A stretch of DNA of 64,000 nucleotides from Candidatus Levybacteria bacterium RIFCSPLOWO2_12_FULL_41_12 (GCA_001784155.1 MFPL01000002.1:34012-98011), one strand, 5' to 3'; shown: positions 2,806-47,930, counted from the stretch's first letter. Made by a program: numbers and translations. Notes: generated by a model not told the origin, from the letters alone.

Positions 2806-5172
2806 TTAGTTGGGTTGTGTGGAGGCTTGGAGGACTGGTCTTTCAGACACTTCTCTTACTTTTATCTTAGGGAGCTTCTTAGTAAAGAATACGTCTAAGA
2901 CTTCATCCATGTGGTCCACGAATACGAATTTCAAATCTGTTAGAACTTCTTTAGGAATATCCACTAGATCTTTTTTGTTGTCCTTAGGAAGTATGATAGT
3001 TTTAAGTCCTGCTCTATGAGCGGCTATAACTTTTTCTTTTACTCCGCCTATCTCAAGCACGCGTCCCCTTAAAGTTACCTCTCCAGTTCCTCCGACCAGC
3101 CTATTTATCGGTATTTTGGTAAGAGCTGATGTAATAGCTGTAGTAATAGCAATTCCTGCTGAAGGTCCGTCTTTGGGGACTGCGCCTTCCGGTACGTGGA
3201 TATGAATATCAAGCTTTTGAAAAAATTTAGGCGAAAGTCCAAGCTCAACGCCCCTTGCCCTGACATAAGACATCGCAGCCTGACAAGATTCCTTCATAAT
3301 GTCTCCCAATTGTCCCGTAAGAATAAGCTGACCTTTTCCAGGCATAAGCGCTACCTCTATAAATAGTATGTCTCCTCCTGCTTCTGTCCATGCAAGTCCT
3401 GTAGCGAGCCCTATATCATCTTTTTTCTCAATCATTGTTCCCCGCATTTTAATGGGCCCTAGGAATTTAGTAGTGTTCTTGGCTGTAATTGTGATCTTTT
3501 TCTTTTTCCCCTCCGCAACAAGCTTTGCTACCTTTCGAAGAAGGCGCGCAATTTGCCGTTCAAGACTTCTTACTCCTGCCTCCCTTGTATAATGTTCTAT
3601 AACGAATTTAAGAGCAGAGTCTGTGATCTCTATTTCCTTTGAGGTCAAGCCGTGTGATTCCATTTGCTTTTTGATTAAGAAATCCTTTGCGATTTTGAAT
3701 TTCTCATCGTGCGTATAGCCGGCGAAGTTTATTACCTCAAGCCTATCCCGCAGAGCTGGAGGTATCGTGTACAAAACGTTTGCCGTAGTGATAAACATTA
3801 CGTCTGACAAATCAAAGGGTACTTCTAAGTAATGGTCTGAGAAGGAATGGTTCTGCTCGGGATCAAGCGCCTCAAGAAGCGCAGATGATGGGTCTCCTCG
3901 AAAGTCTGCTCCAACTTTATCGATCTCATCAAGCATAAATACCGGATTTTTTGTCTTCGCTTCCTTAATTCCCTGAATTATTCGCCCTGGAAGCGCACCG
4001 ACATAAGTTCTCCTATGTCCTCTTATCTCTGCCTCATCCCTTATTCCGCCTAGCGAGACTTTTACAAATTCGCGGCCCAACGCTCTAGCGATGGACTTTC
4101 CAATAGATGTCTTACCTACTCCAGGAGGTCCGGCAAAGCAAAGAATTGGCCCCTTCATCTTTCCTGAAAGCTTGTGGACTGCGAGATACTCAACTATCCT
4201 TTCCTTTGCGTCCTTCAGGCCGTAATGGTCTTCATCAAGAACCTTCTCTGCGGCTTTTACATTGACATTATTTTCCGATACTTTACTCCATGGAAGATCA
4301 ATCAACCATTCCAGGTAATTTCTTACGTAGCCTGCCTCGGGATTGAATTGTGTCATTTGGGAAAGCTTTTTAGCTTCTTTCCTGGCTTTTTCCTCAATCT
4401 CCTCAGGCATTCCTGCTTCTTTAATCTTCATAAGAATCTCTCTTGTTTCATTATCTTCTTCGGACTCTCCGAGCTCTTTTTCAATCGTCCTTAGCCGCTC
4501 CCGAAGCATTACCTCCCGGGCTCCTTTTTCAAACCTTTCTTTAGTCTTAGTATCAATCTTTCGCTCAAGTTCCAAAACTTTTATTTCTTTTGCCAGAAGA
4601 TCCGCCACCTTTTCAAGCCTTTGTCTTACATTCAGGATAGTCAGAAGTTCTTGTCTTTGAACCGGCCTTAAATCCAAAACTGATGCTATAAGATCGGAAA
4701 GCTGAGAAGGGGTGCTTTCAGACATTATGTTCATAAAGACCAGAAAGTCTACGGCCTTGCCCAAATTCATGGCTCTTCTGAACTCATTTGTCAGGTGATT
4801 GCAGAGGGCCCGTATTTCAGGGGTATCAACTACCTCGTCCTGAAGCTCTTTTACAGATCCCAGAAGGAAGGAGTTCCTGTTCTCAAAAGACGTTATTTTT
4901 ACGCGCGCCAGGCCTTTTACATGGGCATTTATCTCTCCATCGGACTTTATCATTCTCTCGATTCGGCAAAGAGTTCCTACTGTATATAGGTCTGAGGGGG
5001 CCGGGTCATTAAGCTTGGAGTTCTTTTGAAGTACAAAACAGACTATCCTTTCCTTACTGAATGATTGCTCTAAGGCAAGCAGACTCTTCGGCCTTCCGAA
5101 TGTGAGAACCGAATCCGTATTGGGAAAAATTATTCCGTCTCTTATTGGAATTATGGGGACTATTTTTTCCAT
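2806..5172 (-). CDS. lon: ATP-dependent protease Lon
   Basis: 788 aa. N-terminal LON substrate-binding domain. Walker A GPPGVGKTS. C-terminal protease domain with PKDGPSAG catalytic-serine motif. Confidence 0.95.
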   Translation of the reverse strand: MEKIVPIIPIRDGIIFPNTDSVLTFGRPKSLLALEQSFSKERIVCFVLQKNSKLNDPAPSDLYTVGTLCRIERMIKSDGEINAHVKGLARVKITSFENRNSFLLGSVKELQDEVVDTPEIRALCNHLTNEFRRAMNLGKAVDFLVFMNIMSESTPSQLSDLIASVLDLRPVQRQELLTILNVRQRLEKVADLLAKEIKVLELERKIDTKTKERFEKGAREVMLRERLRTIEKELGESEEDNETREILMKIKEAGMPEEIEEKARKEAKKLSQMTQFNPEAGYVRNYLEWLIDLPWSKVSENNVNVKAAEKVLDEDHYGLKDAKERIVEYLAVHKLSGKMKGPILCFAGPPGVGKTSIGKSIARALGREFVKVSLGGIRDEAEIRGHRRTYVGALPGRIIQGIKEAKTKNPVFMLDEIDKVGADFRGDPSSALLEALDPEQNHSFSDHYLEVPFDLSDVMFITTANVLYTIPPALRDRLEVINFAGYTHDEKFKIAKDFLIKKQMESHGLTSKEIEITDSALKFVIEHYTREAGVRSLERQIARLLRKVAKLVAEGKKKKITITAKNTTKFLGPIKMRGTMIEKKDDIGLATGLAWTEAGGDILFIEVALMPGKGQLILTGQLGDIMKESCQAAMSYVRARGVELGLSPKFFQKLDIHIHVPEGAVPKDGPSAGIAITTAITSALTKIPINRLVGGTGEVTLRGRVLEIGGVKEKVIAAHRAGLKTIILPKDNKKDLVDIPKEVLTDLKFVFVDHMDEVLDVFFTKKLPKIKVREVSERPVLQASTQPN

Positions 5173-5270
5173 TTAGTTAGCACTCTAGCACAACATCTGC
5201 TAGTTGTCAAGCGCCCCAAATGTGCTTCTTTAGGGTTGACACAAATTATATCATAAGGCTAAAATAATAT

Positions 5271-5780
5271 ATGAGGAAAAAACTGGAAAACAATGAAATC
5301 TTACCCCTTGGCCTCCCGGAAGGAATAAAGCCGGAGCAACTACGCAGAAAGCTTCATTCCGTAGAAGGAAGAACCGCTGAGTTTATTAGTAACTGGGCTG
5401 GCAGCATGCCTTTTGTATACTTTCATGTTATTTGGTTTACTTTATGGTTTGTAATCAATTCTACAAATGTTTTCTCAAACCACGTAAAACCTTTCGATCC
5501 CTTCCCTTATGGACTTCTTACAATGCTTGTCTCTCTCGAGGCTATATTTCTGGCTACTTTTATTATGATCAATCAGAACAGACAGGTTCTTGTAGACACC
5601 TACAGGGAACTCGAGGAAGAAGAAGAGCAGGAAGCTGAAGAACAAGAGCAGGAGGAGCTCGAAGAGGATGTCCAGGACATACAGAAAGATTTAGACGACA
5701 TAAAAAACGCAATTGTCTTTATTCAGCAGAAAATAAGCACGCATGAAAAAAATCCGCAAACTGCCCCTGAAAAAAAGTAA
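5271..5780 (+). CDS. DUF1003-like two-TM membrane protein with acidic coiled-coil tail
   Basis: Conserved N-terminal block (AEFISNWAGSMPFVYFHVIWFTLWF...) followed by an E/Q-rich low-complexity tail. Confidence 0.65.
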   Translation: MRKKLENNEILPLGLPEGIKPEQLRRKLHSVEGRTAEFISNWAGSMPFVYFHVIWFTLWFVINSTNVFSNHVKPFDPFPYGLLTMLVSLEAIFLATFIMINQNRQVLVDTYRELEEEEEQEAEEQEQEELEEDVQDIQKDLDDIKNAIVFIQQKISTHEKNPQTAPEKK

Positions 5781-7022: not shown

Positions 7023-7372
7023 TCTTCGTAGAAGTCGCCTTCTTCGTAATTTTGTTTAAAACAAAGATAGCGGTACTCTTCTTTCGTGTCATTCACCACT
7101 TCATGCCTATCGTTAGGTTCAATTACTAGAGCGTCGCCTGTGCCAAACGTAAACTTTTTTCCGTTTATTAACCAATAGCCATTTGAGTCAAAGAAATAGA
7201 ATATTTCGGTTTGCTTTTTGTGGTAATGAAGAGATGCTGTCCCTCCTGCTTTTATCAAAACCTCCTGAACCCAAACACCTGGAAGACCAAGATCGTCTTC
7301 ATCTAAAAGAACTTTTTTGCTATAACCTTTTCCCTCAAACCAATCTTTTTCCTCAGGTTTAATTATCTTCAC
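7019..7372 (-). CDS. Cupin-domain protein
   Basis: Cupin signature GxxxxxHxHxxxxExxYF (GGTASLHYHKKQTEIFYFF) and a second motif around PNDRHEV. Confidence 0.7.
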   Translation of the reverse strand: MKIIKPEEKDWFEGKGYSKKVLLDEDDLGLPGVWVQEVLIKAGGTASLHYHKKQTEIFYFFDSNGYWLINGKKFTFGTGDALVIEPNDRHEVVNDTKEEYRYLCFKQNYEEGDFYED

Positions 7373-7396
7373 GCTTTGATTATATCAAAGAGGAAA

Positions 7397-7704: not shown

Positions 7705-8490
7705 CTAGACAGAAAACTCAAGGATCATGGGGAGATGGTCTGAAACGATAATTTCCGGTACTTCAAATGTCTTCACCTTAATTCCTCCCGAAACTAAAAT
7801 ATAGTCTGCGTATCTCTCGCTGGTCTTTTTATAATGGTGAGTCCTTGTCCCCTTTATCGAAAACTCTTTGATGAGATTTTTCATATTCTCCTCAAGGATT
7901 TTCAAACTCTCAGTATTAGGACTAAGGTTAAAATCGCCGCAAATAATCTTTTCCCCACTAAAACTGTCTGAAATTTTCTTTATTGCTTTTGACTGAGCAA
8001 TTCTCTCGGGAGTATCCATTTTTTCACCTGGAATCCAATATCCGTGGACATTGCCTACCAGAATTTCCTTTTTACCTACTTTTATTCTCAGGCATTGAAT
8101 GTTTCTTGGTAAATCAAGTGCATTCTTAATCCCCTCCATCTTTATGCTCGGTTTATAGTCATATTTTCCGTGAATAAAAATAGCTTTTTCTGACGAAACC
8201 TTAATATTTTTCCTGACAAATGTGGCCTGACCAAAGGAAAGGGGAAAATTTACTCTTCTCTCGGTGTCATAACCTGTGAACATCGGGGCATAGTAACTAT
8301 TGTAGCCTTTTAGTAATTCCGATAAGTCAGCGTAGAGATCTGTCTTAAATCCGTTTCTGAATTCGCTTTTTGGAGAGTCGAAAACTTCCTGAAAACAGAA
8401 AATGTCGGCGTCGCGGCTTTGATCGTGGACAAACTCTAAGAGTGGCTTATGCATTTTCCCACCCCAAGTATTTAAGGAGACTAACTTCAT
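7705..8490 (-). CDS. Endonuclease/exonuclease/phosphatase (EEP) family protein
   Basis: N-terminal LNTWGG...DIFCFQEV and C-terminal SDHLP catalytic motifs. Confidence 0.8.
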   Translation of the reverse strand: MKLVSLNTWGGKMHKPLLEFVHDQSRDADIFCFQEVFDSPKSEFRNGFKTDLYADLSELLKGYNSYYAPMFTGYDTERRVNFPLSFGQATFVRKNIKVSSEKAIFIHGKYDYKPSIKMEGIKNALDLPRNIQCLRIKVGKKEILVGNVHGYWIPGEKMDTPERIAQSKAIKKISDSFSGEKIICGDFNLSPNTESLKILEENMKNLIKEFSIKGTRTHHYKKTSERYADYILVSGGIKVKTFEVPEIIVSDHLPMILEFSV

Positions 8491-8506
8491 TCGGATATTA
8501 TATCAG

Positions 8507-9283
8507 CTAGAAGCTACTTTCTTTTAGGATTTTTTTTGTTCTTTTCACCAACTCGTCATGCACTCTTCCATTACTCGCTATAAAACCGTTTATAGGCTGA
8601 TCGTATCTTTGCTCATTTCCCAAGAGATCTGTAACTTTACCTCCTGCCTCTTCAACAACTATTTTTACCGCTGCGGCGTCCCAGGGGTTTACGTGCCTGT
8701 AAATTTCGGCTACAAACTCTCCCAATGCAACAAGCATCCCGCCATAAACACACGAATAAATTCTAGTCGTAAGAACTTTTCTCTTTCGAATTTCTTCTTC
8801 CATTCCTAAAAGCTTAAGACTTTCTATTCCCCCGTCAATTATGGTCCTTTCTGAAAAAGAAGAGGCCGAAGAGACTTTTACAGGTTTCCCATTTAATGTG
8901 GTTCCCTTATTTTTTTCGGCATACAAAAGCCTATCAACTATCGGATCGTAAATTACTCCCAGCACGGGACTTCCGTTTTTAACGAGAGCGAGAGAGAAAG
9001 CAAAGATGGGAAAGCCATGGGAAAAAGGGATCGTCCCGTCAATTGGATCACATACCCAAACGTATTCTGAATCCTTAAGACTATTTTCCTCTTCTCCCAA
9101 AATACTGTGCTCCGGATACTCCTTTCCGATAGCGTTTATTACCATTCTATTGACGAAGGTGTCTGTTACGGTAACTGGGGTTTTGTCTTTTTTCCACTCC
9201 TTCTTCATACCGAGAGAAAAATCTTTCCGCATTACTTCTCCTGCCTGCCTTGCCAAACCCATTGAAAAGTCTTTGTAGTTCAT
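8507..9283 (-). CDS. suhB: Inositol monophosphatase family protein (SuhB-like)
   Basis: IMPase motifs WVCDPIDGT and GG metal-binding region. The listed ORF start is a TTG. The ATG at 9283 sits 8 nt downstream of a TATAAT box. Confidence 0.85.
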   Translation of the reverse strand: MNYKDFSMGLARQAGEVMRKDFSLGMKKEWKKDKTPVTVTDTFVNRMVINAIGKEYPEHSILGEEENSLKDSEYVWVCDPIDGTIPFSHGFPIFAFSLALVKNGSPVLGVIYDPIVDRLLYAEKNKGTTLNGKPVKVSSASSFSERTIIDGGIESLKLLGMEEEIRKRKVLTTRIYSCVYGGMLVALGEFVAEIYRHVNPWDAAAVKIVVEEAGGKVTDLLGNEQRYDQPINGFIASNGRVHDELVKRTKKILKESSF

Positions 9284-9321
9284 TTGGGACAATTATAGCC
9301 CTTCGACTGCGCTCAGGACAA
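9284..9321 (-). promoter_or_regulatory. Predicted leaderless sigma70-type promoter of suhB (TTGTCC-18-TATAAT-8-ATG) embedded in the dispersed repeat
   Basis: On the minus strand the sequence reads TTGTCC tgagcgcagtcgaagggc TATAAT tgtcccaa ATG. Confidence 0.55.
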
Positions 9322-9329
9322 TAGCAGAA

Positions 9330-9605
9330 TTATTTTTCCCAGAACTTGATTTGGCCAATTACTAAAGCGCTGGTAAAAAGGGAGTAAATAAAAATATATG
9401 AAGAGTCGGTAAGAAAATACCCCAAGTCTACAAACGCTTTGTTTTCTGTCAGTCTTAACAAATAGCCTAACGAGAAAACAGCAATCGGCATAACTATAAT
9501 TGCCGAAAAACCAATATCTTTCTTAAATCTTCTGAAAAAGAACAATAAAGACAAGGAATACGTAAGAAAAACAACAGAAATTACGAGAACTTGATAGAAA
9601 AACAT
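9330..9605 (-). CDS. Small membrane protein, hypothetical
   Basis: 91 aa, three hydrophobic segments. Confidence 0.4.
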   Translation of the reverse strand: MFFYQVLVISVVFLTYSLSLLFFFRRFKKDIGFSAIIVMPIAVFSLGYLLRLTENKAFVDLGYFLTDSSYIFIYSLFTSALVIGQIKFWEK

Positions 9606-9671
9606 TCTCCGATTGTAGATTTTAAATATTTATATACAAGAGGCGAAATTCGGGGGCAATTATAGCAGAAG

Positions 9672-10007
9672 TTATTTTGCGGCGATCATGGAGATTTCTA
9701 TTTTTGCTCCTAGGGGAAGTTCTTTAACAGCGACAGTTTCTCTTGCTGGATATGGTTCTTTGAAATAGCTTGCATAGGTTTCATTAACTTTTTCGTAAAG
9801 CTCCATATCGGTTAGGTAAATGGTAGTTTTAACTACGTTTTCAAAATTCAATCCTTCCTTTTCAAGGATAGATTTGAGGTTTGTCATTACTTGATGCGTT
9901 TGTTCTTCTACAGTTCCTTCCAAAAGCTTTCCATCTTTGAGGTAAACCTGGCCGGATGTAAAAACGAGTCCGTTTTTTGAAACTGATGGCGAAAATGGTA
10001 ACGACAT
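9672..10007 (-). CDS. ridA: RidA/YjgF/TdcF-family reactive-intermediate deaminase
   Basis: Characteristic C-terminus LPLGAKIEISMIAAK and overall 111-aa length. Confidence 0.85.
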   Translation of the reverse strand: MSLPFSPSVSKNGLVFTSGQVYLKDGKLLEGTVEEQTHQVMTNLKSILEKEGLNFENVVKTTIYLTDMELYEKVNETYASYFKEPYPARETVAVKELPLGAKIEISMIAAK

Positions 10008-10032
10008 GAGGAAATTTTACTCCTTTTGCCTT

Positions 10033-10446
10033 CTATTTGCCAGAGTTAAGTCTTAAATATTTTTTGTGTCTTCTTATTAAAATAAGTAAAACAAATATAA
10101 TGTTTAATAAAACTATCGGAACGGAATAAAATAAGTTGTATATATCCCACTTTTGTCCCATCCCAAGCACAAAAACCTCTAAGCATGTAACAAAAGCCAT
10201 TACTGAAACTGGTATCCAGAAAAAGAGGAAAAAGATTATTCCCAGTCTTCTTAAAAATCCAAAAAAAGATTTTGTATGTTTTAGCGAATGGTAAACGATG
10301 AAAACAAGACACAAAATGGCAATAATGATGGAGGGAATTAAAAAGGGAGCCATCATTTTCTGCAATATAGAATCAGTAAAAGAATAAATCAGTATTACGA
10401 AACTAGAAGCCCACAAAAACGGAAAAGTTAAGATTGGCTTAATCAT
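10033..10446 (-). CDS. Membrane protein, hypothetical
   Basis: The listed ORF is longer. The ATG at 10446 (MIKPILTF...) lies 6 nt downstream of a TATAAT box, making it the likely start. Four hydrophobic helices. Confidence 0.5.
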   Translation of the reverse strand: MIKPILTFPFLWASSFVILIYSFTDSILQKMMAPFLIPSIIIAILCLVFIVYHSLKHTKSFFGFLRRLGIIFFLFFWIPVSVMAFVTCLEVFVLGMGQKWDIYNLFYSVPIVLLNIIFVLLILIRRHKKYLRLNSGK

Positions 10447-10550
10447 GGGGCAATTATAACCCTTCGACTGGGCTTCCTTCAAGTCTTCAGGGTAAACAGG
10501 TGTAAAGTGAACTATTGACAACAGTATATACAAAGTATATACTGTTAAAT

Positions 10551-10850
10551 ATGAATACTGCTGTAATAAACATTAAAACAAATCCCGAAGTTAAAGCTAA
10601 GGCTCAAAAAATTGCTGAAGAACTCGGCTTTAGTCTTAGTTCCCTAATAAATGGATATCTAAGAAGCCTTGTGAAGACAAAGGCTGTGCATTTCAATACA
10701 AGTGAGAAGCCGACAGACTATTTAATTCAAGCGCTCAAGGAATCAGAAAAAGATAGAAGAGCAGGAAGAATCGTTTCTTTTAAGAATCTTAAAGATGAGA
10801 TGGATTATCTTGACAAAATGATCGCGGATGATAAAAATAAAAAGAATTGA
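10551..10850 (+). CDS. RelB/DinJ-family antitoxin
   Basis: N-terminus MNTAVINIKTNPEVKAKAQKIAEELGFSLSSLINGYL is the DinJ/RelB ribbon-helix-helix type. Overlaps the downstream toxin gene. Putative promoter TTGACA-N15-TATATA-8-ATG. Confidence 0.7.
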   Translation: MNTAVINIKTNPEVKAKAQKIAEELGFSLSSLINGYLRSLVKTKAVHFNTSEKPTDYLIQALKESEKDRRAGRIVSFKNLKDEMDYLDKMIADDKNKKN

Positions 10851-11097
10851 ATATTCTAGAAAGTTTGATAAAGATTTAAAAAAGTCCCCAACCAAAATTA
10901 AAATAGCATTTAAAAAAAGACGGGAAATTTTCCAGCAAAATCAATTCCATCCGTTGCTTAACAACCATTTACTGACAGGAAACCTTAAGGGATACAGAAG
11001 CATAAATATTACAGGTGATTGGCGAGCAATTTATTCTGAAAGAAATGGTGTAATTACTTTTGAAATTTTAGGGACACATAGCATGCTTTATAAATAA
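10828..11097 (+). CDS. RelE/YafQ-family mRNA interferase toxin
   Basis: 89 aa. IEYSRKFDKDLKK...HPLLNNHLLTGNLKGYRSINITGDWRAIY matches the RelE/YafQ/ParE-superfamily core. Overlaps the antitoxin by 23 nt. Confidence 0.75.
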   Translation: MIKIKRIEYSRKFDKDLKKSPTKIKIAFKKRREIFQQNQFHPLLNNHLLTGNLKGYRSINITGDWRAIYSERNGVITFEILGTHSMLYK

Positions 11098-11222: not shown

Positions 11223-11330
11223 GGGGCAATTATAGCACCCTACTTCACTTCGGTTTCACTCAGTGTAAACCCTTCGACTAGGCTCAGGGCAAGCACCCCA
11301 CTTCACTTCGGTCTAACTCAGTGTAAACGC
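11223..11330. repeat. Intergenic repeat block: GGGGCAATTATAGC core, then two ~35 bp tandem copies of (C)ACCCYACTTCACTTCGGTYTMACTCAGTGTAAAC separated by a CCTTCGACTAGGCTCAGGGCAAGC unit
   Basis: Direct reading. Copy 1 at 11236-11270, copy 2 at 11294-11328 (31/35 identical). The spacer is a variant of the dispersed CCCTTCGACTG.GCTCAGG repeat. Confidence 0.6.
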
Positions 11331-11449: not shown

Positions 11450-12211
11450 ATGAGTTCTGCAGTCTTTTTACTGGGGTTTATTATTCTTTTCTTGGTAATT
11501 CTTATTCCTTCGATAAAGCAGGTTAATCAATACGAAAGAGGTGTCCGCTTCCGATTTGGGAAATTTCGAGACGAGATGGCGCCCGGATGGAGAATTGTCT
11601 GGCCCGTTATAGAGGGTTGGCAAAGAATTGACATCAGAGTAAAGGCCGTAGACGTCCCGGATCAGGAGGCTATAACCCGAGATAATGTTTCGGCCCGCGT
11701 TAACGCTGTTATTTATTATCGTGTGGATCAGGCAAGGAAGGCAGTTTTGCAGGTGGAGGATTTTTACTATGCGGTCTCCCAACTCGCTCAAACAACCATG
11801 AGGAATGTGATAGGAGAAACTTCCCTTGATGATTTACTCTCCAAGCGTGAACAGGTCGCCAAAAAAATCCAGACAATTATCGACAAGGCCACTGATCCCT
11901 GGGGAGTCAAGGTAGAATCAGTTGAGCTAAAAGATATAATTCTCCCCGAGGAGATGAAAAGGGTTATCGCACGCCAGGCCGAGGCGGAAAGGGAACGCCG
12001 GGCAATTGTTATTCGGGCAGAAGGAGAAAAGGCTGCTGCTGAAAATATTGCTATCGCAGCGGGAAGACTTTCCAAAACCACAGGAGGTCTTCATGTTCGC
12101 ACGCTTCAGACTCTTTCAGAATTAGCATCCGATAAAAGCAACACTATAGTTTTCGTAACTCCCCTTGAAGTGCTCCGCGCTTTTGAAGGAATCATTAAGA
12201 AATTCAAATAA
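11450..12211 (+). CDS. SPFH/band-7 (stomatin/prohibitin-like) membrane protein
   Basis: N-terminal TM helix followed by an SPFH domain (IDIRVKAVDVPDQEAITRDNVSARVNAVIYYRV...), then a coiled-coil Ala/Glu-rich region. Confidence 0.85.
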   Translation: MSSAVFLLGFIILFLVILIPSIKQVNQYERGVRFRFGKFRDEMAPGWRIVWPVIEGWQRIDIRVKAVDVPDQEAITRDNVSARVNAVIYYRVDQARKAVLQVEDFYYAVSQLAQTTMRNVIGETSLDDLLSKREQVAKKIQTIIDKATDPWGVKVESVELKDIILPEEMKRVIARQAEAERERRAIVIRAEGEKAAAENIAIAAGRLSKTTGGLHVRTLQTLSELASDKSNTIVFVTPLEVLRAFEGIIKKFK

Positions 12212-12233
12212 AGGGGCAATTATAGCAGAAGAG

Positions 12234-12686
12234 TTATGCTGCGGTTCGCGGAGGAGGAAGTCGTAGCTTGCCTTTTTGATGAGCGGAAAGTAAATGTTTG
12301 GCACTTACCGATAAACTAGGAAGCGCTGCCATCTCGGCCCAAGAAAAATATTCTATATCGTCATGTATAGACTCTACAACGTGAGGAGTTCCAGACACAA
12401 TTTTTGAGTTATACCAAATGTATAGCTTAGGTTTATCTTCAAAGTAGTGAGCTCTTCCAGCTTCTTGTTCTACCTCAATATCTATTCCAGCTTCCTCACC
12501 GGCTTCCCGGGCGGCAGTTAAAGTAGGATCTTCACCAGGGTTTGATTTTCCGCCAATTATTTCCCACTGGTTTTTTTCGGGAGTATTTCGATGTATCAGA
12601 AGAACTCTGCCTAAATCGTCTTGGATAATTGAACCGGCCATTACTGTTACCGGCGATGGTTCAAATTCCTGCCCAACCAATGTCAT
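12234..12686 (-). CDS. NUDIX hydrolase
   Basis: Nudix box GGKSNPGEDPTLTAAREAGEEAGI. ATG at 12686 lies 8 nt downstream of TGTTATAAT (extended -10). The listed TTG start at 12695 is probably not used. Confidence 0.85.
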   Translation of the reverse strand: MTLVGQEFEPSPVTVMAGSIIQDDLGRVLLIHRNTPEKNQWEIIGGKSNPGEDPTLTAAREAGEEAGIDIEVEQEAGRAHYFEDKPKLYIWYNSKIVSGTPHVVESIHDDIEYFSWAEMAALPSLSVSAKHLLSAHQKGKLRLPPPRTAA

Positions 12687-12735
12687 TAAGGGCAATTATA
12701 ACACCCCACTCTGTTATAAACTACTAAGGGCAAAG
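12687..12735 (-). promoter_or_regulatory. Predicted leaderless promoter of the NUDIX gene (TGTTATAAT-8-ATG) carrying the GGGCAATTATAAC repeat core
   Basis: Minus strand reads gggGTGTTATAATtgcccttaATG. Confidence 0.5.
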
Positions 12736-12770: not shown

Positions 12771-12959
12771 TTACTTCTCTAGCTTATATGCGCTCCAGGC
12801 AAGAAAGCCCGCAGCTACTGCTCCGACAATGCTTAGCCACATTGGAACTACCCACCCCCCAACATTTACGCTCCAACCCAAAAACAACCTTAAAATATGG
12901 AAAGATCCAACTAACAAAAACAGAAGACATGTAACCTGATTGTAGGTTTTTTGCTTCAT
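12771..12959 (-). CDS. Small two-TM membrane protein
   Basis: 62 aa. Preceded by a strong SD (AGGAGGTGAGTAA-ATG). Confidence 0.5.
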   Translation of the reverse strand: MKQKTYNQVTCLLFLLVGSFHILRLFLGWSVNVGGWVVPMWLSIVGAVAAGFLAWSAYKLEK

Positions 12960-13006
12960 TTACTCACCTCCTTTCAGGATTTTCCTAAAGACCAACTAAT
13001 TTCGTT

Positions 13007-13126
13007 CTATCTATATTTCTTGCTAGTTTTTAAGGCTAGCATTTTTCGTTTTATCTCAAGCCTTTTCTTGGTTTTGTGCGGATGAGATCTCTTTTCGTTC
13101 CCAAGTCCTGTATCTCGTTTTGCCAT
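13007..13126 (-). CDS. Small basic protein (39 aa), possible bL28-like ribosomal protein fragment
   Basis: Not in the ORF track (<60 aa). MAKRDTGLGNEKRSHPHKTKKRLEIKRKMLALKTSKKYR. The GN..SH...KTK(K/R)R(L/F) block resembles the bL28 core GNNVSHSxxKTKRRF. Preceded by GTATAAT-7-ATG. Confidence 0.3.
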   Translation of the reverse strand: MAKRDTGLGNEKRSHPHKTKKRLEIKRKMLALKTSKKYR

Positions 13127-13170
13127 ATATCAAATTATACACTATTAATAATTCCTAAATCTCTAGGCGC

Positions 13171-14382: not shown

Positions 14383-14640
14383 TTACCTTTCTACTTGTGG
14401 TTTGGCTTCTTTTACGGCGATCTGACGTCCATTGAGATCTGACCCGTTAAGTTTGTCCATTGCAGTTTTGGCTAATTCTTCTGTCTCCATTTCTACAAAA
14501 CCAAAACCTTTACCTTGTCCTGTATTTCTATCAACTATAACCTTTGCTGATAAAACTTTTCCAATTGTTGCAAAAAGTTCTTCCAGCTGCGCGTCTGTAG
14601 TTGCGTAATCAAGACTTCCTATAAATAATTTATTTGTCAT
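14383..14640 (-). CDS. RRM-type RNA-binding protein
   Basis: RNP-2 LFIGSL and RNP-1 KGFGFVEM. Strong SD AGGAGG 9 nt upstream. Lies 3 nt upstream of the DEAD-box helicase, so probably an operon. Confidence 0.85.
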   Translation of the reverse strand: MTNKLFIGSLDYATTDAQLEELFATIGKVLSAKVIVDRNTGQGKGFGFVEMETEELAKTAMDKLNGSDLNGRQIAVKEAKPQVER

Positions 14641-14858
14641 TTATTCGTTCCTCCTTTCTCTTAAAGATTAATATTGTTATGCAAATAGCTCTGCTCAAAT
14701 GTGAAGTGGTTTAATTGGGATGAAGATACAAACATGTGGAAAAATTGAGGTATCTTTTGTCTTTTAAAAAACTAAATCAAAATGTAAGCAGATTTATTCG
14801 CGAACAATTTACTACATAAGCATTATAACACAACTCAAGTCTTAATTCAAACTATAGG

Positions 14859-15245
14859 TTAACTATAAGCCGCTGTGATAAGAGAACCGTGCCTAGAAAC
14901 AAACTCCCGCGTAGGGCTGGATAGTAAGAGCTTCTGAAGCTCTTTGAGAGTGAAAAATGCGAGCGTTTGTCCTTCTGCACGCTGAATATGGTTTACGTTG
15001 TCGTCGGTAAGGCAGGCGTGATAGCAAGATCTAGATACGAATTCAACATTTTCAACTCTTATTCCCATCTCTTTCTCTATAATTTTTCCAAGCGCATCCT
15101 CAAAAGACTCTTTCGTTGCTTTCGTGCCTCCTATAAAACTCCACGCGTGCTTTTCTTCATCGATTGCGCTATTCTGCCTGTACATAAGAAGCGCTTTGTT
15201 CTTATAGGTAAGGAGGATCAGACTTGAGGAAAATTTATCATCCAT
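14859..15245 (-). CDS. Degenerate NUDIX-fold protein
   Basis: Nudix-box-like GGTKATKESFEDALGKIIEKEMGI with Lys in place of the catalytic Arg-Glu pattern (REx2EE becomes KIIEKE). Confidence 0.45.
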   Translation of the reverse strand: MDDKFSSSLILLTYKNKALLMYRQNSAIDEEKHAWSFIGGTKATKESFEDALGKIIEKEMGIRVENVEFVSRSCYHACLTDDNVNHIQRAEGQTLAFFTLKELQKLLLSSPTREFVSRHGSLITAAYS

Positions 15246-15416
15246 TAATTACATTATAGACCCATTTGGAGAGAAAAGGTTGAGCAAAATCAGGCTAAAC
15301 GTAACAAAGTCGAAGTGCTGAGCATTCCGCTCCAGACCCATTATATCACTATAGCGGTGTCTCAATTTTGTAGCTGGACAACCTATAATTTTTGGTGTAA
15401 TACTTTATATAGACAC

Positions 15417-16686: not shown

Positions 16687-17583
16687 CTATTGATAAATTA
16701 AATAAAGGCCTAGGAACATTAGGAAAATAGCTAAAACTTTAACCCCTAAAGCGCTTTTGCTTAATTCCTCTTTAAGTATTTTAGGAAACCAGATTGAAAG
16801 AAAAACAGTAAAAATAAGAACAAACGCACTTTGAAATCCTCTAGTTACGCTAATTAACGTAACAGGTCCAGTTATTAGAGCCCAATTTATGCTTAACGAT
16901 GCTCCGGCTACGAAAAGCATAGCCATTATCAGAAGTATCCAACCCACAGGTTTTAAATTTGAAAAATTATCAACTAATCTATTTTTAAAATTAGGTATTA
17001 AAAGAAGTAGCGGTGTGGGAAGAAATTGGCCAAAAATTAAATAGACTGTTAAGTCCCAAAATGGATAAGAAACGTATAAAGGTTTTAAAATTACAATTTG
17101 AATTGCATAGATTAAACTGGATAAAACCATCAACCAAAAAGCATTCCTTAATTTAAATACACCCTCTATTCTCTTGAGAGAAATTAAAAAACCACCTATT
17201 AAGATCAATATAAAAGCAAGGTATTGAGGCCTGGTTAAAACTTCTCCCAAAAATAAAAAGGAGAGTATCAGGACAAAGGGCGGAGTCAGCTGAAATAAAG
17301 GTATTACTCGAGATATTTCTTCTTTGGAGATTGCTTGGTAAAAAGCAAAAACAGCGATTATTTGAAACGAGCCGGCAAACACAGCAAGTGCCACTGGGAC
17401 GGGACCAATCCAGCTTAAACCATTGAATAAGATAATGATTAGGGCGAGAAGTAACGAAGAAATTCCAGCTACAAAAGTTAATATAAGCGGGTTTTTGAGA
17501 TGCTTTCCTATTAATAGTTTATCTACAATATTATCCGCCGCCCATAAGGCTCGAGACAAAAGAGAAAAAATTACCCACTCCAT
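16687..17583 (-). CDS. EamA/DMT-family transporter
   Basis: 298 aa, ~10 TM helices with a two-fold EamA repeat organisation. Confidence 0.75.
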   Translation of the reverse strand: MEWVIFSLLSRALWAADNIVDKLLIGKHLKNPLILTFVAGISSLLLALIIILFNGLSWIGPVPVALAVFAGSFQIIAVFAFYQAISKEEISRVIPLFQLTPPFVLILSFLFLGEVLTRPQYLAFILILIGGFLISLKRIEGVFKLRNAFWLMVLSSLIYAIQIVILKPLYVSYPFWDLTVYLIFGQFLPTPLLLLIPNFKNRLVDNFSNLKPVGWILLIMAMLFVAGASLSINWALITGPVTLISVTRGFQSAFVLIFTVFLSIWFPKILKEELSKSALGVKVLAIFLMFLGLYLIYQ

Positions 17584-17593
17584 ATCGTTGAAA

Positions 17594-30997: not shown

Positions 30998-31009
30998 TAT
31001 AATTAATAT

Positions 31010-31872: not shown

Positions 31873-31925
31873 GCTCGTCCACCAAAAACTATCCTCATAG
31901 TAGTTGTTATGCTATAATCCCCAGC

Positions 31926-36366: not shown

Positions 36367-36823
36367 TTTCTGATACTTCTTTTAGCGCTTTTTTCTCTTC
36401 CTCCGAGAGCTCGTGCTCTGCTCCTTTACCTGCGATAATTTTCTTCGCATACCACCTGGCACCTGACCTAGAATAAAGACCGGATATTAAAACTCCCGTG
36501 TTATTTCCGTCTAAGAGAGACAAAATAAAACTCTGGTCTCCTCCGGTGTCTTTAAACGGATTAAACCTGAGTAACCCGATCTTCTGAATATGAAAACGGC
36601 TGTCTTTTTCTATTTTAGCACAATACCTGATTATATCTTCAAGATCTTTTTTTGACTTTGCCGAATCTCTGAGAAGCGACTCCAAAACAGACTTGAGGCT
36701 TTTTTCGCTTACGCCTTTAGTAAGCCTATTATAGTGTCCCTGTGTTCTCCAGAATAAGAAAGTTATGACAAGAAGCCAAATAAAAATTACTCCCAATAGA
36801 ATGAGAGTATAGTCGAACACCAT
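36350..36823 (-). CDS. DUF4446-family membrane protein
   Basis: N-terminal TM helix plus the block IGLLRFNPFKDTGGDQSFILSLLDGNNTGVLISGLYSRSGARWYAK. Confidence 0.65.
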   Translation of the reverse strand: MVFDYTLILLGVIFIWLLVITFLFWRTQGHYNRLTKGVSEKSLKSVLESLLRDSAKSKKDLEDIIRYCAKIEKDSRFHIQKIGLLRFNPFKDTGGDQSFILSLLDGNNTGVLISGLYSRSGARWYAKKIIAGKGAEHELSEEEKKALKEVSENESKK

Positions 36824-36910
36824 AGATACTCAGTATATTAGCCTCTTGACATATCTTGTGTCAATAGTGTAATCTTAGCCATAAAGTGAGCCTAGATAGG
36901 CTCAAACCAT

Positions 36911-37171: not shown

Positions 37172-37197
37172 TAAACCTGAAAGGAGGTGAATGAAAA

Positions 37198-37341
37198 ATG
37201 GCATCAATGTATTGTGTTAAATGTAGAGCAAAGAGAGACGATCCTAACGCAGAGAGAGTAACAATGAAAAACGGCAAACCGGCTCTCAAAGGAAAGTGTC
37301 CAGTTTGTGGAACCGGAATGTATAAGATCGGATCTGCATAG
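37198..37341 (+). CDS. 47-aa zinc-ribbon mini-protein (CxxC...CxxC)
   Basis: Not in the ORF track. MASMYCVKCRAKRDDPNAERVTMKNGKPALKGKCPVCGTGMYKIGSA. Strong SD AAAGGAGGTGA 7 nt upstream. Followed by a strong intrinsic terminator. Confidence 0.6.
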   Translation: MASMYCVKCRAKRDDPNAERVTMKNGKPALKGKCPVCGTGMYKIGSA

Positions 37342-37465: not shown

Positions 37466-39076
37466 CTATTCGTTTTCTCTAAAATGTTTTAGTCTGATAA
37501 TCTTAACGACTGAGAAATTCCACTCAGCGTCTATCTCGCTTCTGCCGAATCCTGCTATTTCCCACTTAGCTTGACCTAATGGCTCACAGGGAAGCGTCTC
37601 GCAAACTATCAGGAGTTGGTCTGTAACTGTCTTCCTTTCCGGGTCCAAAGCCGGCGTTTCGATTACAGTAGGTTCTTTCCCTGCGAGTTTGAAGAAATAT
37701 CTATATGCATAGTCAGAGTTACCCCCCGTCACTATAGCAAAATTAAATGGCCGCTCTCCTGCAGTAGATAAAACGAGATTGGAAATATCTCTAATCTGTT
37801 TTACCTGCTGATTTTGACCTCTTTTGACCGGAGTATTATGAAGACTCATAAAAGCTAGAATACCAAGCAATAAAACCGCACTGAGTCGCATTAGAGATGG
37901 GTTTATGTTTCTAAACCTAGTCTCCCAAAGCTTCGAAACGAAGTTACCTACCAGAAGAAAAGGTAAGGGGAAAATTATTCCTAAGTAATAATCGTAAACA
38001 TCTTTATTGTAAAAGCCAAAAAGCACTAGGGGAACAAAAAACCAAAGAAAAAGGAAAAGAGATTTCTTAGAAAATACATCTCCCTTCCTAAGCAACGAAA
38101 CAAAAAGGGTGGTTGATAAAACAGCCAAAATAATTGCAAATACCATCCATAAGAACAGCGCTCCGTTACTATATTCGTAGAAATGCGCGGGGAGTGGATA
38201 ATTTGCTACAAGACCTGCAAAAAGCCTTTCGAAGACGTGCCAGACTTGAGGAACAAAAGAGATTCCTAAACCCGTTTCTTCCGAGGACAGAATGAATCTC
38301 AATATATTTTTTGTGTTTAATAGATCGTGGCGGAACTCAAAAAGCAGAAAAGGCAAAAAGCCCATAACAAATCCCAAGAAAACGGAGATAGAGTTCAGCG
38401 CAAAACGCATTGCTTTGTTTATAAATCTGTCCGAGTGACCCAGAAACGCAGTTGCCGCGACATACAAGAACATAACCACTCCCATGAAAGACGCTAAGTA
38501 ATGAAGCTGCATGAGTATTCCGAAAGAAAAGCCAGACCCGATAAGAAAAAGCTTTTTATTTCGCGCTATCCCTTTATATAAAAGGTATAGCGTAACTATT
38601 GAGAAGAAAGGAACGATGTTGGGATTCCATGAAGACTTGGAGTATATAATTACAACCGGGGAGATAGCATACAGGAATGAGGCAATAAGTCCTGCCCTTT
38701 CGCCAAAAAATTCTTTACCGATTTTATAGACTAGAAAAACTGTCGCGATTCCAAATAACGCGACCATAATTGATGGGCCGACAGGATTGTACTTAGATAA
38801 GTAAAGGAATGGGGCGGCAAAATAGTAATATATCGGACCCAAGAAGAAACCTCCCACAGAAGATGCAGGACCCAGTAAAGTCAGGTGCCCATGCAAAATG
38901 TCATAAATCGCAAGCATATCCCTTCCCTCGTCTCCCAGAAAAGTCATATATTGCTCGACCTTGTAGAGCCGCAGAAAAGATGCGAATAGAAGAATTAGTG
39001 TCAATATGACATGCGGAGGCCTTAACCTACCCATTTTTGAAGCTTGGAAAGAGAAGAAACGTGCCATCTTTTCCAT
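37466..39076 (-). CDS. GT39/GT83-type (ArnT/PMT-like) polyprenyl-phosphate-sugar-dependent glycosyltransferase
   Basis: Multi-TM. N-terminal FLGDEGRDMLAIYDILHGHL loop typical of ArnT/PMT family GT-C enzymes. The start may be the internal Met at 39034, since the listed start overlaps the upstream GT2 gene by 55 nt. Confidence 0.85.
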   Translation of the reverse strand: MEKMARFFSFQASKMGRLRPPHVILTLILLFASFLRLYKVEQYMTFLGDEGRDMLAIYDILHGHLTLLGPASSVGGFFLGPIYYYFAAPFLYLSKYNPVGPSIMVALFGIATVFLVYKIGKEFFGERAGLIASFLYAISPVVIIYSKSSWNPNIVPFFSIVTLYLLYKGIARNKKLFLIGSGFSFGILMQLHYLASFMGVVMFLYVAATAFLGHSDRFINKAMRFALNSISVFLGFVMGFLPFLLFEFRHDLLNTKNILRFILSSEETGLGISFVPQVWHVFERLFAGLVANYPLPAHFYEYSNGALFLWMVFAIILAVLSTTLFVSLLRKGDVFSKKSLFLFLWFFVPLVLFGFYNKDVYDYYLGIIFPLPFLLVGNFVSKLWETRFRNINPSLMRLSAVLLLGILAFMSLHNTPVKRGQNQQVKQIRDISNLVLSTAGERPFNFAIVTGGNSDYAYRYFFKLAGKEPTVIETPALDPERKTVTDQLLIVCETLPCEPLGQAKWEIAGFGRSEIDAEWNFSVVKIIRLKHFRENE

Positions 39077-40185
39077 ATAAATATATTATACATAGTATAA
39101 CTGTAAGGAATAACAAACAGACCAATTGCAAGTATTAAGAACAATTGTCTCGTTTCCTCTCCGAAAAGATGAGTTCCAATAAATAATACTGTTGTAATTA
39201 TCACGAGAGATCCAGCAGAAACTAGATTAAACTGAGGGAATTTTAGAAGAACTCTCAATGGGTGAGTGATTTTATAGCTTCCGAATGCCCAGAAGTTATT
39301 GATAGTAAAGTTCCAAATAATTGAAAGCTCGGCTCCTATTGCGCCTGCTGCCGCGGGATGAAACCCCCGCCTAAAAAGAACTTCAAGCGTAATCGCGTTT
39401 ATTATATAGCCAACGAATCCGGTTATAGCGTATTTCAGAAAAGGCGAGTGCACAAGCTCTCTTGCCCGAGCAACAGTAACATACTTAAGAAGGTTTAATA
39501 TATATTCAGCTGGCGCGATTTTCGACCTTCCCAGAAATCTGTCCTTAGCATGAAAGGGAACTTCAGTTATTCTAAACCCATCTGCAACGGCTTTATGAAG
39601 AAAAGCTACTTGAAAAGTGTACCCCGCATATTTTGAAAGCTTTGACTTCTCCTTCAGGAATACTTCCTTTTTGATCGCTCTGTAACCACCAGTCCAATCA
39701 TGAATCCAGAACCTCATTAGTATTCCTTTTACCATTAGGTTACCTATGAGAGACAATATCTTTCTGTGAGTTCCCCAATTGTCAGGAATTCCTCCGCCTT
39801 TTATGTATCTGCTCCCTACTACAAAATCGTATCCTTCATCGATTTTTTTCAAGAATTCCGGAATTTTCTGAGGGTCGTGGAAAAAATCAGCATCCATCTC
39901 AAACATTATGTCCGCCCCCATTTCATCGACTGCATAATTCATTGCTCTTATGTAGGCAGCACCGAGCCCCTTCTTTGGACCCGTTGTGAGACCTATATTC
40001 TTCCACTTTTTCATCATATTTTTTATTTCTTCGGCAGTACCGTCCGGAGAGTTATCGTCTGCGATCAATATATACATATCGTATTTTTTCAATTCTGGAA
40101 AAATCTCATTTTCAATAAGAGGGACTAGCTTCTGAATATTCTCTTTTTCGTTATAAGTTGGGATAATTATTACTACCTTCTTCAT
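39022..40185 (-). CDS. GT2 polyprenyl-phosphate sugar synthase (DPM1/ArnC-like) fused to a C-terminal GtrA-like 4-TM domain
   Basis: IIIPTYNEKENI...ADDNSPDGT...DADF catalytic motifs. Four C-terminal TM helices (GtrA type). Confidence 0.85.
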   Translation of the reverse strand: MKKVVIIIPTYNEKENIQKLVPLIENEIFPELKKYDMYILIADDNSPDGTAEEIKNMMKKWKNIGLTTGPKKGLGAAYIRAMNYAVDEMGADIMFEMDADFFHDPQKIPEFLKKIDEGYDFVVGSRYIKGGGIPDNWGTHRKILSLIGNLMVKGILMRFWIHDWTGGYRAIKKEVFLKEKSKLSKYAGYTFQVAFLHKAVADGFRITEVPFHAKDRFLGRSKIAPAEYILNLLKYVTVARARELVHSPFLKYAITGFVGYIINAITLEVLFRRGFHPAAAGAIGAELSIIWNFTINNFWAFGSYKITHPLRVLLKFPQFNLVSAGSLVIITTVLFIGTHLFGEETRQLFLILAIGLFVIPYSYTMYNIFIWKRWHVSSLSKLQKWVG

Positions 40186-47072: not shown

Positions 47073-47106
47073 AATTACAATTTAGTCAAAGAAATTGTAA
47101 TTTAGT
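47073..47106. promoter_or_regulatory. Repeat pair AATTACAATTTAGT-N6-AATTGTAATTTAGT in the divergent rfbA / dehydratase-like promoter region, a putative operator
   Basis: Direct reading. Arms are both inverted (AATTACAATT vs AATTGTAATT) and direct (TTTAGT). TATAAT at 47118-47123 lies 6 nt upstream of ATG 47130. Confidence 0.4.
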
Positions 47107-47129
47107 ACGATATATCTTATAATACTACT

Positions 47130-47930
47130 ATGGGTTTTAACGAGCAACCTTCAACAGTTAGTTATTTAGATTCTCATATAGATACGATGTTAAAAGCACC
47201 TGAATTAACCGGCATAAGAACCTGGTATGAAGGGCAATTAGCAAATCTTGGAGAAATAACCGTAACCCCAGCTCCCCTTACAGACGGAGATAGATGGAGA
47301 AGAGAATTAACTTCAGCCGGTGAGGTAGACAAGGTAGACGGAGCTTTTTTTACTCTCCAGGGACAAGCAATAACAAAATACAATCCTGATGGATCTGTTT
47401 CATCCGGATGGACTCAGCCGGGGCTACTCCAAAAAGAAGGAGAAATTGAAATACCAACCCCAGAAGGATCAAGAAAAATAAAATTCAGTGGGGCTATAGG
47501 CATAATAAAAGACGCAAATGGAAATGTTCTTTTAACTGTAGCTCAAGAACCTTTTGCTCAAACACCCAAAAGAGCTCTTGCAAGAACCCCTTTCCAAACA
47601 TCCTCTACAAAACTTCAGGGAATTGTGGATGGCAACAGAGATCTTGACCCTACGCTTTACGATTTAATTGCGAGTGTTGCTACGGGAAAAAGTCCATCTG
47701 AAATATTCCAAATGGGTGATGTAAGCCTTTTTCCATTATCATATGCCGACGCTAACAGAATTGCTGCAACAAATATAGGATTTGTGCTTGCCGTTACCGA
47801 TGCAAAACTTGCTAAAAAACTTGAAAGTGATGGGAAAAATAGATGGTGTAGCATTGAAGAAGTTAAAGGGTTAACAAAAGCAGGTCTTCTTAATGGGCTT
47901 ACTGCCACTGCAATTTTTGCAACTTCATAA
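47130..47930 (+). CDS. Single-domain NDP-hexose 2,3-dehydratase-like protein
   Basis: Blocks GWTQPGLL, GNVLLTVAQEPFAQ, TPFQTSSTKLQ and C-terminal RWCSIEEVKGL resemble one repeat of EvaA-type hexose 2,3-dehydratases (normally two tandem repeats, ~470 aa). Confidence 0.5.
   Translation: MGFNEQPSTVSYLDSHIDTMLKAPELTGIRTWYEGQLANLGEITVTPAPLTDGDRWRRELTSAGEVDKVDGAFFTLQGQAITKYNPDGSVSSGWTQPGLLQKEGEIEIPTPEGSRKIKFSGAIGIIKDANGNVLLTVAQEPFAQTPKRALARTPFQTSSTKLQGIVDGNRDLDPTLYDLIASVATGKSPSEIFQMGDVSLFPLSYADANRIAATNIGFVLAVTDAKLAKKLESDGKNRWCSIEEVKGLTKAGLLNGLTATAIFATS

Follow-up and report, generated by a model that had tools for sequence, protein, structure and literature searches.

The 64-kb stretch of DNA analysed here (the window; GCA_001784155.1, contig MFPL01000002.1, positions 34012-98011, Candidatus Levybacteria bacterium RIFCSPLOWO2_12_FULL_41_12) comes from the Patescibacteria, or Candidate Phyla Radiation (CPR), and has a GC content of 40% throughout. 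The genome probably contains many leaderless transcription units, in which a putative sigma70-type promoter is placed so close to the ATG that the transcript would begin at, or within a few nucleotides of, the start codon. The original prediction, made on the same DNA, had listed twelve genes with a -10 hexamer just before the ATG and no Shine-Dalgarno (SD) site, and had proposed widespread leaderless mRNAs coexisting with SD-led genes. "At least twelve" turned out to be an understatement, as 28 of the 80 window genes carried such a hexamer and 11 of the 12 cited examples held. The spacing of the hexamers, the promoter signals around them, their bias towards first genes, their mutual exclusion with SD sites, the confinement of their excess to ATG in related loci and the start calls all support the proposal at the sequence level.

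Spacing of -10 hexamers before start codons

Genes were called mechanically with a codon-usage score, with the first ATG taken as the start and upstream motifs ignored; unnamed genes are denoted below by the position of their start codon. A hexamer was accepted as a -10 element when its second and sixth bases were A and T and its match to TATAAT was at least 5/6, and it was regarded as start-proximal when its 3' end lay 5-10 nt before the ATG. As a control, the same upstream regions were shuffled 2000 times with dinucleotides preserved. Start-proximal hexamers preceded 28 of 80 genes, against 4.1±2.0 (maximum 12) in the shuffles, and exact TATAAT stood at this position 14 times, against 0.45±0.68. 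The enrichment in the window over shuffled controls, a comparison that the original prediction had proposed for the whole genome, is well above the expectation from AT-rich composition. Spacers of 6, 7, 8, 9 and 10 nt were found in 12, 4, 5, 2 and 3 genes, respectively, over a background of about 0.4 per offset. The mode was 6 nt, with a peak one position wide, and 21 of the 28 cases fell at 6-8 nt.

TATAAT-like words are common in AT-rich spacers, and a scan for consensus promoters over 20 kb gave only a mild excess (61 sites vs 44±7 in shuffles), as would be expected if the hexamers were chance occurrences in AT-rich intergenic DNA combined with a choice of ATGs near AT-rich sequence. This origin is already refuted by the shuffles and by the offset controls, in which 6-nt bins at offsets 11-52 held 2-5 genes each, and it retains practically no probability. 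The narrow peak at 6 nt also speaks against it, as does a test independent of gene calling: of the 18 ATGs in the window that had a -10 hexamer at spacer 6, 15 opened open reading frames (ORFs) of at least 60 codons, compared with 20% of all ATGs. In E. coli K-12 (50 kb, 40 genes, identical pipeline) no -10 peak was seen, and SD-like 4-mers stood at spacers 4-10 in the majority of the 40 genes. The arrangement in the window is non-random. The Deinococcus radiodurans MP1 plasmid (50 kb, first-ATG pipeline) also gave no peak; it was dropped as a positive control because first-ATG calling and the 5/6-TATAAT criterion are unsuited to a high-GC genome with TANNNT promoters, which makes the result uninformative.

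The 60 nt upstream of each of the twelve originally cited starts were inspected. A valid hexamer ending 5-9 nt before the ATG was present at suhB and at the genes starting at 10446, 12686, 13126, 22980, 26445, 31010, 31926, 47130 and 5271. The relB gene (10551) has a promoter at leaderless distance as proposed, although the hexamer is better read as TTGACA-17-TATACT-7 than as TATATA-8. The hypothetical gene at 15417 was rejected as a leaderless case: the proposed TTATAT-6 lacks the conserved A at position 2, and the best promoter, TGGACA-18-AATACT, ends 12 nt before the ATG. SD sites were nearly absent from the motif genes of the window, of which only two (10007 and 50006) have any SD-like 4-mer.

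The same arrangement was found in the 80 best related loci from a species-representative genome collection (1.3 Mb, 1194 genes of at least 100 amino acids). Nearly all of these are labelled Patescibacteria/CPR (e.g. WWE3, Dojkabacteria, Saccharibacteria and Parcubacteria lineages), and AspRS identity to the best related locus was 76%; a few are metagenome-assembled genomes with proteobacterial labels, apparently mislabelled. Of 1193 genes, 268 had the motif at 5-10 nt, whereas 68 had it at control offsets, and it was in excess in 50 of the 57 loci with at least 12 genes. The spacer profile peaked as in the window, with 98, 50, 47 and 34 genes at 6, 7, 8 and 9 nt and about 10-20 at other spacers. 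Motif and SD-like 4-mer exclude each other, with co-occurrence in only 1 of the 268 genes, compared with about 21 expected if they were independent. The excess is also restricted to one start codon in these loci: the motif preceded ATG in 228 genes vs about 66 at control offsets, and no excess was found for GTG (20 vs 14-23) or TTG (19 vs 27-36). An excess confined to ATG fits the recognition of a 5'-terminal AUG.

Promoter character, start codons and predicted transcript ends

Start-proximal hexamers were aligned and compared with intragenic look-alike hexamers for features that had not been selected for. TG at -15/-14 (extended -10) accompanied 29% of the start-proximal hexamers in the window, against 8% of the intragenic ones, and 42% against 6% in the 80 loci. 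In the window, 54% of the former and 14% of the latter had a -35 element 16-19 bp away with a match of at least 4/6. In the 80 loci, T occupied -17 in 52% of start-proximal hexamers, and TTG was enriched at -35 to -33. Near-perfect promoters, with TTGACA at 17 or 18 bp, precede lon, the DUF1003 gene, relB and the 57236 gene. When a first gene of a transcription unit was defined as one divergent from its upstream neighbour or at least 40 nt away from it, the motif preceded 20 of 40 first genes and 8 of 39 closely trailing same-strand genes, a 2.4-fold difference. Because of the TG, T at -17 and -35 TTG features and the first-gene bias, the hexamers behave as putative sigma70-type promoters, neither as AT-rich noise nor as a non-SD ribosome site.

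As for the second possibility, Bacteroidota-type ("group B") genomes have an AT-rich motif near the start codon of leadered mRNAs. A TATAAT-like RNA element of this kind, serving as non-SD ribosome-binding site or A/U-rich enhancer, would agree with the eight motif genes that lie just behind a same-strand gene, and with the rarity of SD sites in this genome, which makes an alternative signal conceivable. An RNA element would have no need of TG at -15/-14, T at -17 or TTG at -35 with a 16-19 bp spacer. Moreover, group B motifs precede all genes alike (PMC6028130), in contrast with the first-gene bias seen here, the 6-nt mode corresponds to the distance from a -10 element to the transcription start, and the motif is tied to ATG only. 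We consider such an element quite improbable.

Mis-assigned start codons, with true starts downstream behind their own ribosome-binding sites and the proximal ATGs lying in 5' untranslated regions, could produce a similar picture for hypothetical genes that have no N-terminal domain to anchor them (10446, 13126, 22980, 47130, 58688 and 39076). In at least 12 genes, however, a Pfam boundary lies within 10 residues of the proximal ATG: domains begin at residue 5 in Lon (LON_substr_bdg), SuhB (Inositol_P) and Exo_endo_phos, residue 3 in YqeY and EamA, residue 4 in RidA, residue 6 in DUF4446, and residue 7 in GltX (tRNA-synt_1c) and TsaE. An exact match to the window's AspRS lies on contig MFPM01000011.1 of assembly GCA_001782725.1; gene lengths in the GenBank record of that contig match our calls for recJ, the RSH-like gene (482 amino acids), aspS (479 amino acids), the 22980 gene and gltX, and no SD-like site was seen before the next in-frame starts. 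As the Pfam N-terminal boundaries and the GenBank lengths agree, mis-assigned starts are not the cause of the pattern, and this explanation has hardly any probability left.

Three minus-strand genes have TATAAT 6-7 nt before GTG (2258-2272, 7370-7384 and 49420-49435). For the GT2 glycosyltransferase gene, no start other than GTG(2260) fits the Pfam domain, which begins at residue 8; the next ATG (2212) would drop the VVIPSYN strand. Beyond the 28 counted genes, weaker or GTG cases comprise lon (TAGAGT-9), 47026 (AAAAAT-6), 58754 (TACTAT-6) and the GTG starts 2260, 7372 and 49422.

A -10 hexamer spans -12 to -7, and RNA polymerase normally starts 7 nt past its last T; a 6-nt spacer would therefore put +1 on the A of the ATG. 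From this geometry we infer where transcripts begin, and from characterised leaderless mRNAs how ribosomes would be recruited to them. A sigma70-type promoter of the form T-n-TG-n-TATAAT, often with TTGaca 17-18 bp upstream, would be placed with the 3' end of its -10 element 6-10 bp, mostly 6 bp, before the ATG, and RNA synthesis would start on the A of the AUG or no more than 1-4 nt ahead of it. Such transcripts would have no space for an SD site, and none is present. By analogy, a ribosome carrying initiator tRNA and IF2 would bind the 5'-terminal AUG directly; direct binding of ribosome and initiator tRNA to a 5' AUG is established for leaderless mRNAs elsewhere. This route would serve about 28-35 of the 80 window genes and half or more of those that come first in a transcription unit, including the housekeeping genes lon, suhB, gltX, aspS, recJ, tsaE and yqeY.

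Several observations weigh against leaderless initiation as predicted here. A -35 element can be recognised in only about half of the promoters in the window. The eight motif genes mentioned above overlap a same-strand gene or trail it by 10-25 nt (e.g. 8490, 31010, 50006 and 39076); transcription from upstream may also continue into them, which would make them leadered cistrons without an SD site. GTG follows the motif in three window genes, a poorer fit to a strict 5'-AUG rule. Conservation is modest, as the motif was found in 30% of the orthologues of motif-bearing genes vs 15% for others, and before aspS in only 23 of 77 orthologues. Finally, spacers of 9-10 nt in five cases (2644, 17583, 26445, 50440 and 57236) imply leaders of 2-4 nt, not strictly none.

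The last point bears on a further reading, in which the promoters are real and the mRNAs mostly have short leaders (3-10 nt) or additional upstream starts, without strictly leaderless translation. Short leaders do exist in the window: the -10 of 15417 ends 12 nt upstream, as noted above, and cca (29594, plus strand) has TGcTATACT 19 nt upstream and is short-leadered, not leaderless. (A long cca ORF from 29342 was rejected, since both the sequence and the location of the Pfam domain indicate 29594 as the start.) Compact genomes also permit read-through from upstream units. Against this stand the mode at exactly 6 nt, with most cases at 6-8 nt, and the ATG-only excess, which suggests recognition of a 5'-terminal AUG; leaders of up to 5 nt are in any case too short for an SD site and are conventionally classed as leaderless. 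Mostly short-leadered mRNAs are thus unlikely, and leaderless initiation remains the preferred reading.

The signal before aspS illustrates the differences between lineages. The closest relative (L001) keeps TACAAT-6-ATG, and TATAAT or TACAAT stands 6-10 nt upstream in L001, L012, L022, L029 and L069, whereas the gene is AAGGAG-led in several other lineages (L004, L006, L009 and L080). Lineages thus differ in how one and the same gene is initiated. SD-like sites are likewise distributed very unevenly over the 80 loci, and the proportion of genes that have one ranges from none to more than half in a broader count. Beyond aspS and gltX, there was little synteny between the window and the related loci.

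Initiation modes and individual genes of the window

The coexistence of two initiation modes, as originally proposed, was confirmed as far as promoter-proximal and SD-led genes are concerned; it proved incomplete in that stop-start coupling adds a third. Strong canonical SD sites (AAAGGAGGTGA) precede about 4-5 of the 80 genes, mainly those for small proteins, which would be translated from leadered mRNAs. The three genes named as AGGAGG-led in the original prediction do carry AAAGGAGG(TGA) sites 7-10 nt upstream of their starts. These are the 62-amino-acid membrane protein gene (12959-12975, minus strand; GAAAGGAGGTGAGTAA-ATG(12959)), the RRM protein gene (14640-14850, minus strand; AAAGGAGGAACGAATAA-ATG(14640)) and the gene for a 47-amino-acid zinc-ribbon-like protein, DUF5679 (37181-37200, plus strand; AAAGGAGGTGAATGAAAA-ATG(37198)). 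For the RRM gene, the best promoter is TTGAAT-17-TGnTATAAT at 14850-14822, with an implied leader of about 175 nt. A rhodanese gene downstream of tRNA-Gln is also SD-led (19250-19264, minus strand; AAGGAGAAGTAGT-ATG(19250)). Judged from the AAAGGAGGTGA sites, the 16S rRNA of this organism evidently keeps a canonical anti-SD tail, predicted as ...GAUCACCUCCUUU; Rfam and ARAGORN scans of the window identified tRNA-Glu and tRNA-Gln only, and the Rfam scan found no rRNA. Any SD-like 4-mer was found before about 10 of the 80 genes, and among 61 genes of at least 100 amino acids the count at spacers 4-11 (6) was the same as at control spacers 16-23 (6). Of 39 internal genes, 20 begin between -4 and +5 nt from the upstream stop codon, an arrangement that suggests termination-reinitiation coupling, by which about 20 genes would be translated. 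At least three predicted initiation modes thus coexist in the window, and the other genes were assigned to none of them.

Several leaderless-type starts are in divergent arrangement. Upstream of lon (5170-5210, minus strand) lies TTGACA-17-(TG)TAGAGT-9-ATG(5172), with a perfect -35 and a weak -10 (4/6), and the divergent DUF1003 gene (5236-5273, plus strand) has TTGACA-18-TAAAAT-5-ATG(5271). The gltX gene (minus strand; TTGAGT-17-TACAAT-6-ATG(22941)) and a 343-amino-acid gene (plus strand; TATACT-6-ATG(22980)) stand back-to-back at 22939-22982, 38 bp apart, with each -35 region inside the first codons of the other gene. A second tight divergent pair, 81 bp apart at 26361-26447, consists of aspS (minus strand; TTGTCT-17-TACAAT-6-ATG(26363)) and the RSH-like gene (plus strand; TTGACT-18-(TG)TAAAAT-9-ATG(26445)). 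The 482-amino-acid RSH-like protein (26445-27893, plus strand) gave a weak partial RelA_SpoT match at residues 312-361 (E=7.7e-6, just below the Pfam cut-off), and may contain a divergent domain resembling small alarmone synthetases within a larger protein.

The recJ gene (29560-29580, minus strand) has TGcTATAGT-8-ATG(29562), and its -10 is one half of the palindrome TGCTATACTATAGCA, common to the divergent cca promoter. This palindrome (29566-29580), located between recJ (29562, minus strand) and cca (29594, plus strand), contains the extended -10 TGcTATAsT on both strands and looks like a symmetric bidirectional promoter, predicted to be leaderless towards recJ and to give a leader of about 13 nt towards cca. 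The relB antitoxin gene (10515-10553, plus strand; TTGACA-17-TATACT-7-ATG(10551)) likewise has its promoter within a palindrome. The perfect 11-bp inverted repeat ACAGTATATAC-AAA-GTATATACTGT at 10521-10545 extends over the -10 element and the spacer in the promoter of this relB/yafQ-like toxin-antitoxin pair, and is probably an autoregulatory operator of a leaderless antitoxin gene.

The remaining plus-strand cases are an MFS transporter gene (19438-19476; TTTACA-18-TAGAAT-6-ATG(19474)), yqeY (30998-31012; TATAAT-6-ATG(31010), with the hexamer directly after the cca stop codon), a thioesterase gene (31910-31928; TGcTATAAT-7-ATG(31926)) and a 266-amino-acid gene (47118-47132; TTGTAA-17-TATAAT-6-ATG(47130)).

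On the minus strand, the GT2 glycosyltransferase gene described above (2258-2272; TATAAT-6-GTG(2260)) is a candidate GTG leaderless gene, and the cupin gene (7370-7384; TGaTATAAT-6-GTG(7372)) is an ORF without any ATG. A 113-amino-acid gene (2642-2660; TATAAT-10-ATG(2644)) has an implied leader of about 3-4 nt. The Exo_endo_phos gene (8488-8502) has TGaTATAAT-6-ATG(8490), with the hexamer directly after the suhB stop codon, and suhB itself (9281-9301) has the GGGCTATAATTGTCCC motif with TATAAT-8-ATG(9283). TACAAT-6-ATG(9605) precedes a 91-amino-acid gene (9603-9617). The mode is ambiguous for the RidA/L-PSP gene (10005-10025), which has TAAAAT-6-ATG(10007) and AAGGAG 12 nt upstream. A 137-amino-acid membrane protein gene (10444-10462) has GGGTTATAATTGCCCC with TATAAT-6-ATG(10446), and a NUDIX gene (12684-12704) has TGtTATAATTGCCCT with TGtTATAAT-8-ATG(12686). 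TATAAT-7 precedes both a second NUDIX gene (15243-15258; ATG(15245)) and a 39-amino-acid ORF (13124-13139; ATG(13126)). The latter, which occupies 13007-13126, is very basic (MAKRDTGLGNEKRSHPHKTKKRLEIKRKMLALKTSKKYR) and had no Pfam match; it could encode a small ribosome- or nucleic-acid-associated protein.

Further along the same strand are an EamA transporter gene (17581-17598; TATAAT-9-ATG(17583)), a DUF4446 gene (36821-36837; TATACT-8-ATG(36823)) and a PMT_2 glycosyltransferase gene (39074-39090; TATAAT-8-ATG(39076), a putative start within the 3' end of the upstream gene). In a 191-amino-acid gene (50004-50018; GATAAT-6-ATG(50006)) a 4-nt overlap with the tsaE stop codon makes coupling an alternative, and tsaE (50438-50456) has TGaTATAAT-10-ATG(50440). 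The last two cases are a 238-amino-acid gene (57234-57275; TTGACA-17-(TG)TATATT-10-ATG(57236)) and a 129-amino-acid gene (58686-58700; TACAAT-6-ATG(58688)).

Some of these promoters are part of a repeated sequence. The 16-nt consensus (G/C)(G/T)G(C/T)TATAATTG(C/T)CC(C/T) occurs in six copies within 3.4 kb, all on the minus strand (9286-9301, 9653-9668, 10447-10462, 11223-11238, 12213-12228 and 12689-12704), where 0.03 were expected. Three copies stand directly before an ATG (suhB, 10446 and the NUDIX gene 12686), and the other three have no usable ORF downstream. Two of the ORF-less copies come after a stop codon, and transcription from them would run antisense into the convergent Band_7 gene (11450-12211) and in the direction of the YafQ-like toxin gene (10828-11097). 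The copies may represent a small promoter cassette that is repeated, or strong promoters with a GC-rich discriminator from which non-coding or antisense RNAs are made. The word CAGTCGAAGGG has five matches vs 0.7 expected (9299-9309, 10460-10470 and 11270-11280, minus strand; 17954-17964, plus strand; 29984-29994, minus strand), two of them as CCTGAGCGCAGTCGAAGGG-like sequence, and it abuts the consensus promoter motif in two cases; it looks like a short dispersed repeat. In a different part of the window, a (CA)12 microsatellite (55673-55697) lies at the 5' end of the ORF 54638-55759. This ORF adjoins a plus-strand ORF (55760-56090) that has no canonical in-frame start codon and whose translation appears to resemble proteins of the four-helix-bundle or "23S rRNA intervening sequence" type.

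Comparison with known systems

There is ample documentation of leaderless mRNAs in Actinobacteria, Deinococcus-Thermus and archaea. The CPR make up a large share of bacterial diversity and have unusual, reduced ribosomes. No paper on leaderless mRNAs in Patescibacteria, CPR, Saccharibacteria, Parcubacteria or TM7 was found in the searchable literature. The mechanism is already known, and its prevalence in the CPR appears to be undescribed.

The nearest observation from the same superphylum is the absence of the anti-SD motif from about half of the Parcubacteria, for which no alternative initiation route was given (Tsurumaki et al. 2022, PMC9297842). This is independent evidence that SD pairing is dispensable in the CPR, although that study, which deals with rRNA and ribosomal proteins, considers neither promoters nor 5' ends and makes no mention of leaderless mRNAs. 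It also differs from the present case in that those Parcubacteria lack the anti-SD, while the window organism evidently keeps a canonical one, judged from its AAAGGAGGTGA sites. It is quite conceivable, and we propose it tentatively, that leaderless initiation and stop-start coupling form the main route of translation start across the Patescibacteria/CPR, with SD pairing as an accessory that was gained and lost between lineages. If so, the CPR would be the first large low-GC bacterial clade using genetic code 11 with a predominantly leaderless transcriptome, and the loss of the anti-SD in about half of the Parcubacteria would have a functional explanation, possibly linked to the reduced ribosomes. 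If the predicted 5' ends are real, anti-SD loss in many Parcubacteria would be simply explained, gene-start prediction and promoter annotation in metagenome-derived CPR genomes would need leaderless-aware models, and promoter-ATG fusions without a ribosome-binding site could serve as expression cassettes in the newly tractable Saccharibacteria.

Among the genome groups distinguished by GeneMarkS-2, group A, characterised by an SD-like site 4-12 nt upstream of most genes, does not describe the window. Group B does not describe it either: the window resembles the Bacteroidota in having few SD sites and an AT-rich motif near the start codon, but the motif of group B is no promoter and stands before every gene, also within operons, whereas the window motif comes with -35 and TG features and a first-gene bias.

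Other leaderless systems share single traits with the window. In Deinococcus deserti and the Deinococcus-Thermus, the majority of mapped transcripts are leaderless, according to the account of de Groot et al. (2014) given in PMC6028130. As far as that account goes, the -10 element likewise lies immediately upstream of the start codon; leaderlessness was established there by RNA-seq and proteogenomics, while the window case is known from sequence alone. The code-4 Mycoplasma of group C are low-GC, with 30-60% of transcripts predicted to be leaderless (MetaGeneMark-2 preprint, 10.1101/2022.07.25.500264). They are comparable in their small, reduced, AT-rich genomes, and differ in phylum and in genetic code, as TGA is a stop codon in the window.

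The closest match is the leaderless group C itself, exemplified by Mycobacterium tuberculosis, Streptomyces and Corynebacterium (Lomsadze et al. 2018, PMC6028130). This group is defined by the placement of the -10 element, which in M. tuberculosis lies 6-8 nt from the start, and about 25-50% of transcription units are leaderless, with other signals used by the remaining genes, as summarised in PMC6028130 with reference to Cortes et al. 2013. The predicted architecture of the window matches group C in its short and fixed -10 distance, promoter features, first-gene bias, lack of SD sites and preference for AUG, and the distributions of -10 distances are alike. There are also differences. Group C actinobacteria are high-GC with a loose TANNNT -10, whereas the window has 40% GC and a near-consensus TnTGnTATAAT; SD use by the non-leaderless genes is much weaker in the window; and GTG-initiated leaderless genes are common in mycobacteria, whereas the CPR loci have no GTG excess. 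Because code-11 genomes of group C are almost all high-GC (10.1101/2022.07.25.500264), a CPR genome with code 11 and 40% GC would be an unusual member of this group.

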